Shown here: positions 22,994 through 25,653 of the stretch, in pieces
How positions within the stretch are numbered: the first letter of the stretch is position 1
Layout: the number at the start of each line of letters is the position of its first letter
Virus record (IMG/VR): IMGVR_UViG_3300015241_000015
Location: 1 to 64,000 of that record
From: a virus
Direction: 5' to 3' (one strand)
Length of the DNA: 64,000 bases
The notes under the pieces: model-generated
Told to the model about the DNA's origin: nothing
Database searches by the model: none
The model's input: only the letters and a program-made list of their open reading frames with translations
Position numbers and translations under genes: made by a program

Positions 22994-23407
22994 TCATGCG
23001 CTTTCCTTCTTGAAAATCACAACCATACTGGGGAACGGGGCTGGCTGAATCGATCCATTGAATTTCAATCGGCCGCGAATGAAGCGAACCTCACGGGCTT
23101 GCGGTAGCACCAAATCGTGAAACCAAGGTGATGACGTTCTTGCCGGTATCAGATACACCGCCAGATCGGCTTCCCGGCCACGCTCCAGCCATTCCCTAAT
23201 CCCTGGGCCGTAAGGTGGATTGCAAAACACCCGCCGGCCCGTCCAGGAAACAAACAGCGGCGCCAACCCGTCCTCGATTCCACCCAGCGGGCAAGGATCG
23301 AAATCGAAGTGGAATTCCTCGTTGAGCGACCTATAAAGCCACTCAGGCGTCCTCCACTCCGCCGTGGTCGAACTGAAAATTACCCGGGATGGCATGGCTG
23401 ATTTCAA
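22994..23407 (-). CDS. Phage DNA N6-adenine methyltransferase (Dam-like)
   Basis: EWRTP, FDFDPC, VFCNPPY, LIPART, FIRGRLKF, APFPS. Confidence 0.9.
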   Translation of the reverse strand: MKSAMPSRVIFSSTTAEWRTPEWLYRSLNEEFHFDFDPCPLGGIEDGLAPLFVSWTGRRVFCNPPYGPGIREWLERGREADLAVYLIPARTSSPWFHDLVLPQAREVRFIRGRLKFNGSIQPAPFPSMVVIFKKESA

Positions 23408-23982
23408 GTCGTTTTAACTTCTACGAATCGCGTGACTCGAAAGGTTCCAAACGGGCCACGTTTCTCAGGGCGAAAATCTCCAATGCCCGTACTCACTCCG
23501 CCCTCGGCCAGAAGCTGATGGGCTGTCTCAATCGGAAGCTGATTGTCGTCAATTTGCAGATTGAACTTCGCTGACCACTGGTCGAACCGCGGGCGGTGTC
23601 TCATCACGCGCCCCTTTGTCGCCGGGATCGTGACAGGCCGCGAATCAACCTCGAATCTCTTGGCTGGGCCACCATCTCCGTTCAGAATCGTGACGGTATC
23701 GCTGCATATTCGAACGGCCGCCGGCACGACAAATTTCAGCGTTTTCCGGGATGAGCGCATCTTGTGATTCGCCCCAGCCGCTCCCATCACGTTCGGAATC
23801 GCAAACGCCGAAAAGTAGAAGTGGCCTGCATCATCAATGTATGCAACCCGCCTCGCGGCTTCGAGTGGATCTTCATGTTGCGCCAATTGCGTTCTCGTGG
23901 GCTTTGCCAATTGTGCGCGTTCATCGAACCGTTGAATAAGCAAAGGCGTCAGTCCAGCAATTTCACATTCGATCAGTTTCAT
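23404..23982 (-). CDS. Small RAMP/Cas7-like protein (Vipr-like candidate)
   Basis: First strand I.G.TPLL, RPRFDQWSAKF, C-terminal Gly-loop GIGDFRPEKRGPFGTF; adjacent to the GGC-NN repeat RNA. Confidence 0.65.
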   Translation of the reverse strand: MKLIECEIAGLTPLLIQRFDERAQLAKPTRTQLAQHEDPLEAARRVAYIDDAGHFYFSAFAIPNVMGAAGANHKMRSSRKTLKFVVPAAVRICSDTVTILNGDGGPAKRFEVDSRPVTIPATKGRVMRHRPRFDQWSAKFNLQIDDNQLPIETAHQLLAEGGVSTGIGDFRPEKRGPFGTFRVTRFVEVKTT

Positions 23983-24030: not shown

Positions 24031-24060
24031 TTGCCAATTCCTTCCCCTGTTTTGTAAAGT
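24031..24060 (+). promoter_or_regulatory. Sigma70-type promoter for the GGC-NN RNA
   Basis: TTGCCA-18 bp-TAAAGT, ending 10 bp before the first pentamer. Confidence 0.55.
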
Positions 24061-24066
24061 TGTTGA

Positions 24067-24207
24067 CCTTGGCGCTGCGAGGCGCGGCACTGCATGGCAA
24101 GGCAGGGCACGGCCTGGCACGGCGTGGCCTGGCAAGGTCGGGCATGGCTTGGCTCTGCACGGCAAGGCAAGGACAGGCGGGGTGTGTTAAGCCCCGCCTA
24201 TTTATTT
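24067..24207 (+). ncRNA. Pentamer-periodic (GGY-NN)n putative guide RNA
   Basis: 21 in-register pentamers at 24071-24175 (16 GGC, 3 TGC, 1 GGT, 1 GGA, each plus a variable NN), followed by a hairpin. Confidence 0.7.
24175..24207 (+). terminator. Hairpin terminator closing the pentamer RNA
   Basis: AGGCGGGG-9 nt-CCCCGCCT followed by ATTTATTT. Confidence 0.65.
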
Positions 24208-24219
24208 GCGTGCAATGGC

Positions 24220-25653
24220 TCACTTCTCCTCCTTGCTTGGAGGGGTCTTGTCGGATGATTTTTGGTGATGCGGATTTGATGCGGATTCTGCTTTATTTTG
24301 GTCTATTTTGCTGATGGATGTCGTTGAAGCTATTGATTCTATTGAGGTTGATTCCAACTCTGGATCAGCATATCGGGGTTCGAATCCCTGGGGGGCAGCC
24401 AAATCTTTTGAACAACTTACAGACTTTTCATTCGTTTTTGATTCGCCCTCGTCTCCTCCATAGTGCGGTTTTGATGCGGATTGACTCTTCTTCTTTCCCT
24501 CTTCTTTGGTCTCTTTTGGGGCCTCGTCGTCCAGGACTTGCACCCACTCCGCATTTGCGCCGGGGATCAGGTGGCCGTAAATGTCGATCGTGACCGAAAT
24601 ACTCTTATGCCCCATCTGCTTTTGCACATAGGCCGGAGAGACTCCCGCCTGGATCAGCAGGCTGCCGTAAGTGTGGCGAAGGTCATGAAACCGGAAGCGA
24701 CGAATACCGGCTTGCTCTAGCGCTGGATCGAGGTATCGCTTGGCGATATTGTCCGGGAATATCGGTCCACCGGTCTCCGATGGGAACACCAGATCGTCGG
24801 AAATACTGGTCTTGCCATCCATGAAGGCAGGCAGAAGGCGTTCATCTCTCGCCACCACCAGCGCCGTCCGTAATTGTTCTGTCATATCAACGCGACGGGA
24901 CTCGCCGCTCTTGGGAGAACCAAAGGTTTTGGATTTCACGTCATAAGTTCTCTCGACCAGGATGAAGCACTCCGGCCCAACACATTCCCCGAACTGAATA
25001 TGCCCCCACTGCAAGGCGATCAATTCACCCTTGCGAAGCCCAGCCCGTAAAGCGGCCAGGAAAAAAACGGAGTATCCTGGGCATATCTCGCCAACTGCCG
25101 TCAGGAAACGTTGCGCCTCGCTGCGTGTCATCGAATCCCCTTTAGCTTTGCCCTTTTGCTTCTTGTTGAATTTTCCGATCCGTGAAGCGGGATTGGAAGC
25201 AATAATGCCATCTTCGACGGCGGCATTCAGACAGGCGCGCAATGCCCCGTATGTTAGGCGTACCGTGTTGCGCGCAAGCTTGCCATTCGATAAATCGCCA
25301 ACAAAAGACTTCACTTCCTCGCGGGTTATTTTGGTTAAAGCCTGTGCGCCAAACCTGGGGACCACGCGAAGCCTGAGTTGCTCCTCGTAACTGCCCCAGC
25401 TTCTGTGTTTGATTTCCCCTTTGCGCCCACGAAGCCAGGCGGCGGAATACTGCGAAAATGTTTGCTCTTTGCACGCTTCTTCTTTCGTTTCGAGAAAGCC
25501 TAACTGGCCCAAAGCGGCCATACCTTCGGCTCGCTTCCGAATCTGCTCTGCCAGTTTCGCGTCACCAGTCTTCAGCGATTTCGAGGAGCGTTTTCCTTTG
25601 TGGTTAACAAATAACCACCACACGCCTTTCACTTTTTTCAGTTTGACTCCCAC
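24220..25653 (-). CDS. int: Tyrosine recombinase (phage integrase)
   Basis: GLRKGEL, PKSG, FHDLRHTY, MGH...T.DIYGH; arm- and core-binding N-terminus. Confidence 0.95.
   Translation of the reverse strand: MGVKLKKVKGVWWLFVNHKGKRSSKSLKTGDAKLAEQIRKRAEGMAALGQLGFLETKEEACKEQTFSQYSAAWLRGRKGEIKHRSWGSYEEQLRLRVVPRFGAQALTKITREEVKSFVGDLSNGKLARNTVRLTYGALRACLNAAVEDGIIASNPASRIGKFNKKQKGKAKGDSMTRSEAQRFLTAVGEICPGYSVFFLAALRAGLRKGELIALQWGHIQFGECVGPECFILVERTYDVKSKTFGSPKSGESRRVDMTEQLRTALVVARDERLLPAFMDGKTSISDDLVFPSETGGPIFPDNIAKRYLDPALEQAGIRRFRFHDLRHTYGSLLIQAGVSPAYVQKQMGHKSISVTIDIYGHLIPGANAEWVQVLDDEAPKETKEEGKKKSQSASKPHYGGDEGESKTNEKSVSCSKDLAAPQGFEPRYADPELESTSIESIASTTSISKIDQNKAESASNPHHQKSSDKTPPSKEEK
24266..24482. repeat. 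Integrase arm-type site candidates flanking the attP core
   Basis: TGATGCGGATT at 24266, 24277 and 24472, plus variant TAGTGCGGTTT at 24461. Confidence 0.65.
24357..24401 (+). other. attP core: 3' half of tRNA-Gln(CTG), inside the 3' end of int
   Basis: Anticodon loop CT-CTG-GA, stem TCAGC, T arm CGGGG-TTCGAAT-CCCTG, acceptor strand GGGGGCA-G-CCA; 5' half of the tRNA absent. Confidence 0.85.

Follow-up and report, generated by a model that had tools for sequence, protein, structure and literature searches.

A VIPR guide RNA of a temperate soil phage decodes to a conserved integrase helix and probably targets a competing integrative element

VIPR is a CRISPR-related gene silencer of phages that consists of a minimal RAMP protein, Vipr, and guide RNAs (vrRNAs) in which GGY triplets alternate with NN pairs (bioRxiv 10.64898/2026.04.26.720920; bioRxiv 10.64898/2026.04.26.720927). 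In the published structure, the GGY triplets are sequestered by Vipr protomers while the NN pairs are displayed (bioRxiv 10.64898/2026.04.26.720927). The NN pairs bind target DNA with every third base skipped, the skipped base usually being the wobble position of a codon; targets were reported on both DNA strands, natural targets match the guide at 80% or more of the NN positions, and self targets are absent (bioRxiv 10.64898/2026.04.26.720920). Degeneracy inside vrRNA arrays was likewise reported in a 2026 bioRxiv preprint on VIPR. Further hallmarks of the system are a Vipr protein composed of an RRM core, a G-loop and a thumb, and vrRNAs that are expressed as small RNAs, have a structured 3' tail and co-purify with Vipr. 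In the Escherichia phage SUSP1, vrRNA4 reads codon positions 1 and 2 of the excision recombinase gene of F5 satellites, immobilising the satellites (bioRxiv 10.64898/2026.10.15.759431). Both this kind of system and the targeting of a recombinase by skipping wobble positions have thereby been published already for SUSP1.

We analysed a window of 64,000 nucleotides (positions 1 to 64,000 of the IMG/VR virus record IMGVR_UViG_3300015241_000015) from a phage found in soil metagenomes, whose genome is a single contig of 81,925 bp. Employing phmmer, we found that a 192-aa protein encoded on the minus strand (23404..23982) matches PDB 36pp, 'SUSP1 Vipr protein' (E 1.6e-6), with the GxGDxRP loop included in the match. 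A profile made from 22 members of its clade aligned end to end with the SUSP1 Vipr chain (1-184 versus 1-188, E 3.9e-16), and the best Foldseek matches of an AlphaFold model of the protein (pLDDT 85.7) were Csm3/Cas7 chains (E about 5e-6). Judged by homology and modelled fold, the 192-aa ORF is a Vipr protein, RAMP/Cas7-like and homologous over its full length to that of the type II VIPR system of SUSP1, with only about 25-30% similarity between the two. The locus resembles the Cas7 backbone of Class 1 CRISPR systems (Csm3/Cas7 on crRNA) in its RAMP fold, one protomer per repeat unit and periodic interruption of pairing. Unlike Class 1 CRISPR, it is phage-borne and comes without a CRISPR array or other cas genes, and its period is 5 nt with 2 read bases, compared with 6 nt with 5 read bases in Class 1 systems.

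An ORF of 137 aa (22994-23407, minus strand), in which part of a Dam-like domain was recognised (PF05869, E 4.6e-13), lies downstream of vipr and overlaps its stop codon. Only 2 of 80 Vipr relatives have this ORF, in neither case next to vipr, and it is not an obvious vap gene; in contrast to SUSP1, no conserved vap gene was seen beside vipr.

Like SUSP1, the phage carries a guide built of GGY-NN pentamers. Its start lies 89 bp from the start codon of vipr, and array and gene are divergent, which is a further difference from SUSP1. We parsed 23 in-register pentamers on the plus strand at 24071-24185. Units 1-17 (24071..24155), each with (G/T)GC or GGT followed by NN, read GGCGC TGCGA GGCGC GGCAC TGCAT GGCAA GGCAG GGCAC GGCCT GGCAC GGCGT GGCCT GGCAA GGTCG GGCAT GGCTT GGCTC, and units 18-23 (24156..24185) read TGCAC GGCAA GGCAA GGACA GGCGG GGTGT. 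GGY-NN accounts for 19 of the 23 units, TGC-NN for 3 and GGA-NN for 1. The first-pass annotation had taken the stretch for a guide that spells an integrase-like peptide once each third base is passed over. The series that it listed is identical to the first 20 NN pairs of our parse, and its degenerate translation of them is correct.

A sigma70-like promoter is predicted on the same strand at 24031..24060 by consensus match (TTGCCA, an 18-nt spacer and TAAAGT), with a predicted start a few bases before 24071. An intrinsic terminator is predicted at 24175..24208 (plus strand), with a 9-bp stem including 7 G-C pairs, a 7-nt loop and a ATTTATTT tail; it overlaps the last two units, so that units 22-23 fall within its stem, and the vrRNA is probably capped at its 3' end by this hairpin. 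SUSP1 vrRNAs end in a pseudoknot tail instead of such a plain hairpin. No Rfam family was found in the array region, and the whole phage genome contains no second array of this type, compared with four guides in SUSP1. The single guide is also longer, with 17-23 units versus 9-16 in SUSP1, where the footprint of vrRNA4 is 6 units. From its repeat structure and its place beside the Vipr gene, we identify the array as a vrRNA, the only guide RNA in the VIPR system of this temperate soil phage; the first-pass annotation had also called it a guide.

In IMG/VR, 80 relatives of this Vipr were found (L127-L206) with 25-71% identity, mostly 45-70%, and GGYNN arrays lie directly beside vipr in 77 of them. 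In all 77, the array is on the vipr strand, directly upstream or downstream of the gene; it is inverted only in the phage studied here, which is also the only one with a predicted promoter and terminator of its own on the array. The arrays of the relatives are often much longer. Some are very long and unbroken, with 98 units (L127, 3269-3947), 50 units (L131, 609-858) and 48 units (L130, 4307-4546), and no tails are visible between their guides.

Using these arrays, we compared NN frequencies with codon composition, without reference to any target. In the de-replicated arrays of the clade, NN frequencies correlated with sense codon positions 1-2 of the long ORFs of the phage at r 0.68, and at r 0.78 when the last three units were left out; the remaining registers and the antisense strand gave r of at most 0.34. 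Because the NN composition fits sense codon positions 1-2 only, a 1-nt skip is supported for guides that copy coding strands. The every-third-base reading of the first-pass annotation is the published VIPR rule, and the NN composition of the clade supports it. As a separate observation, guides in the clade, the present phage included, seem to copy coding strands almost exclusively. An all-against-all comparison of 9-unit windows from 607 arrays with 1.9 Mb of loci, at skips of 0-3, gave nothing informative.

In the relatives' arrays, AA is over-represented among the last 2-3 units (about 30% versus 12% overall), as are AG, AT and TT. These ends may represent a conserved 3' end signal, undescribed in the preprints for this clade, and the present array shares the AA/AG/AT-rich 3' units. 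Since units 18-23 of the present array also remained unmatched in every integrase match described below, with per-unit scores near zero across 43 matches, they are probably a 3' end feature or handle and not part of the guide.

The own tyrosine integrase gene of the phage lies next to the array on the minus strand (24220..25653; PF00589 plus SAM-like domains). Within the 3' end of this ORF (its last ~115 codons), there is a tRNA 3'-half-like attP core (24357..24402, plus strand), which belongs to the context of the cassette and not to the guide; Logan contigs of three soil runs covered it 100-250x with tRNA-gene-like 5' extensions, and ARAGORN found no complete tRNA within the window. The array lies outside the cover of these contigs, which are therefore uninformative about it. 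The guide matches the own integrase poorly. Over units 1-17 (34 NN positions), only 10/34 positions match at the own helix homologous to the guide target (ARNTVRLTYGALRACLNAAV, 25216-25275), and the own-integrase peptide quoted in the first-pass annotation, NTVRLTYGALRACLN, is present and likewise gives 10/34; the annotation was right that the guide differs from the phage's own Int. Across the own genome, no self target was found: the maximum was 22/40, below the shuffled mean of 23.4, or 21/34 over 17 units. The scan of the own genome also covered skips of 0, 2 and 3. In this respect, the guide is like SUSP1 vrRNA4.

TRAP binds 11 (G/U)AG repeats, and its site in the Bacillus trp leader consists of triplet repeats with 2-nt spacers. 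The array has the same layout of triplets and 2-nt spacers and stands beside int and attP, and it could be asked whether it is a protein sponge or an attenuator in the manner of TRAP or CsrB, with no guide function, or a self-regulator of the adjacent int. Such a role is very improbable, in that the adjacent gene encodes a full-length Vipr homologue, vipr is paired with such arrays in nearly all relatives, the NN spacers follow codon statistics, the window has no TRAP-like gene, and the own int and genome are unmatched. A TRAP- or CsrB-like protein-binding RNA was rejected on the identity of the neighbouring gene as Vipr.

Read by the 1-nt-skip rule, units 1-17 give A-[DE]-A-T-[IM]-[NK]-[SR]-T-L-T-V-L-[KN]-R-[IM]-[FL]-S. 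At the sequence level, this peptide is the conserved helix A-x-A-T-I-N-R-x-L-x-x-L-K-R-M-F-S in the N-terminal SAM-like (core-binding) domain of tyrosine integrases. None of the guides of the relatives spells this helix. We searched for DNA targets with NN-x patterns, either as contiguous tiles or as spaced seeds; being exact, such seeds are insensitive to targets with scattered mismatches, so that a lack of matches weighs little. The tile of units 1-9 (18 specified bases) had two matches in IMG/VR, L121 and L122, and each falls, in frame, on the helix of the core-binding domain of an integrase. They represent the same 329-aa tyrosine integrase, matched at ADATINRTLGALSKALRLAW with 18/18 for units 1-9 and 22-23 of 34 for the whole, and the integrase in L121 possesses the C-terminal R..H..R..Y residues.

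A spaced seed was made of the ten units that the first-pass annotation had equated with conserved residues (T-I-N-R-x-L-x-x-L-K-R-M-F; 20 specified bases). It produced 43 matches, 1 in IMG/VR, 7 in GTDB genomes and 35 in metagenomes, of which about 40 are in frame on the helix xN(A/G)TINRELxALKRMF(S/T/N/H)LG. Among the 43 underlying ORFs, 36 contain PF00589, 22 contain PF02899 (the SAM-like domain with the helix) and 17 contain PF24624; two or three off-helix matches are about what chance would give for 20 specified bases. Parts of the gapped pattern proposed in the first-pass annotation are therefore found in frame inside int genes, and the likeness to the core-binding helix that it noted extends to two families of tyrosine integrases. 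In protein searches from both integrases, no other stretch of the region was as well conserved across hundreds of integrases as A-x-A-T-I-N-R-x-L-x-x-L-K. The best-matching integrases have a tRNA-Phe or tRNA-Leu gene as neighbour, which is expected of integrated elements, and one is accompanied by an excisionase-like HTH gene.

In L207, the IMG/VR match of the spaced seed, the helix (residues 137-153) lies inside a SAM_1 match (106-154). This integrase has an in-frame stop at 412-414, between the N-terminal 264 codons and the part for the catalytic C-terminus. Possibly the gene is a pseudogene, or the stop a sequencing error. We also noticed an identical helix peptide, KNATINRELAALKRMFNLGREHR, in L209, L212, L219, L229 and L246, which comprise MAGs labelled Actinomycetota and Terriglobales and three metagenome contigs. 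Its occurrence across phyla reflects either one mobile element in common or a binning error.

The integrase-like decoding of a genuine VIPR guide could be coincidental, the true target, coding or non-coding, being a different sequence that the collections do not contain, or a sequence to which another skip length applies. To weigh this, we compared the guide with other arrays and with shuffled ones. The present guide is compatible with the helix at each of the nine conserved positions, and no other window reaches 8/9 among 8,795 units of 607 arrays in both orientations; the helix was spelled in 0 of 100 shuffles of the 607 arrays. Calculated from the allowed codon families, a random window would fit every one of the nine positions with a probability of about 6e-8. 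When the guide was compared with 197 integrase proteins, 12/17 residues were compatible for the real order of units; across 300 shuffled orders, the mean was 8.1 and the maximum 10. The integrases had been retrieved with guide-derived seeds, so that the test is not fully independent. The real order of NN pairs thus performs better than shuffled orders, as the first-pass annotation would have it. Contiguous tiles elsewhere in the guide gave no match in IMG/VR for units 7-15, four chance matches for units 12-20 and one for units 9-17, and none of these five lies in an integrase. The resemblance to integrases is more than chance.

The match has clear bounds, and some of them speak for coincidence. 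No match of at least 90% to the guide was found in the sequences searched with the exact seeds (IMG/VR, JGI metagenomes and GTDB genomes), and units 8, 10, 11 and 18-23 misfit the integrases sampled. The best matches, L221 and L213, score 28/34 (82%) for units 1-17 and 28/40 (70%) for the first 20 units; by a binomial estimate, 28/34 alone is expected by chance a few times per trillion-base collection. Searches for units 6-16 in JGI metagenomes and GTDB genomes, for a Leu-independent seed (units 4-8, 10-11 and 13-15) in IMG/VR, and, allowing up to 3 mismatches, for units 3-17 in 807 genomes drawn from two phyla all returned no match. The decoded 20-mer peptides, forward and reverse, had no Pfam match; a tblastn search of 50,697 phage records (E up to 10) also found nothing. 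Set against these points are the rarity of the decoding in random and shuffled arrays, the convergence of two partly independent seeds on the homologous helix in two integrase families, and the clade-wide fit of NN composition to sense codon positions 1-2 only. A coincidental decoding is accordingly improbable in our estimation.

The pattern of mismatches within the guide bears on a second alternative. The integrase family of the L121 type is perfectly matched over units 1-9 and then diverges. In the larger family, unit 8 (T), in the middle of the guide, is wholly mismatched with an invariant Glu, also in the 28/34 matches, and units 10-11 (T, V) are half matched. No sampled integrase fits units 8, 10 and 11 (T, T, V) together with units 12-17. 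The 5' half of the guide corresponds to one family (ADATINRTL, 18/18) and the 3' half to another (LKRMFS), and many unrelated soil integrases reach 25-28/34. The guide might then be a generalist and not copied from one rival gene: it would be directed at the most conserved integrase helix, common to nearly all integrases of this broad group, and silence several families at about 75-85% NN match through tolerance of mismatches. In its favour, the published threshold for natural targets is an NN match of 80% or better (bioRxiv 10.64898/2026.04.26.720920). The complete mismatch at unit 8, mid-guide, in the larger family speaks against such a generalist, and one unsampled integrase family with T-L-T-V at these positions would be a simpler account. 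We consider the generalist guide rather unlikely. If it were true, many unrelated rival elements would be silenced at once despite 15-25% mismatches, VIPR guides would be family-level weapons and not sequence-specific ones, and hybrid 5' and 3' halves would be their signature.

The reading that we favour, and hold to be likely from the decoded sequence and the analogy with SUSP1, is a VIPR guide that silences the integrase gene of a competing integrative element, with units 1-17 lying on the helix. The orientation of the array, inverted in comparison with all 77 array-bearing relatives, counts against it. The first-pass annotation had named the integrase of a rival element as the target. That part of its claim is upheld insofar as the guide decodes to an integrase helix and leaves the own Int unmatched; no gene matching the whole guide was found, the best being the 28/34 matches.

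In the proposed mechanism, the vrRNA would be transcribed on the plus strand from its own promoter and end at the intrinsic terminator. By analogy with SUSP1, Vipr protomers would polymerise along the vrRNA, one per (G/T)GY triplet, exposing the NN pairs, and the Vipr-vrRNA filament would bind double-stranded DNA in which the series of NN pairs is repeated, each pair being separated from the next by one skipped base. The bound target would be the int codons for the SAM-like-domain helix in a competitor that integrates into the same host, for example a prophage, a satellite or an island. Repression of int would then hinder the integration or excision of the competing element, as inferred from SUSP1. 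On the same analogy, synonymous mutations in the target would not stop binding, because the skipped base is the wobble position.

Compared with SUSP1 vrRNA4, the guide is alike in that its NN pairs stand for codon positions 1-2 with the wobble base skipped and in that its predicted target is the recombinase of another element; it differs in that the predicted target site is the N-terminal SAM-like-domain helix of tyrosine integrases. The locus reveals no new kind of system. What it adds is a distant soil-phage member, the SAM-like-domain helix as a predicted target site, and a guide that is single, long and opposite to vipr in orientation.

For the Vipr clade as a whole, the gapped code can be checked without knowing any target, through the mirroring of sense codon positions 1-2 in NN statistics. 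For the present phage, there is a short prediction that can be tested: Vipr with this vrRNA should bind integrase-helix DNA. The logic of targeting a recombinase, so far shown only for the E. coli phage SUSP1, would be extended to an uncultured temperate soil phage with a Vipr of a distant clade, which suggests that silencing the integrase of a competitor may be a recurrent use of VIPR.
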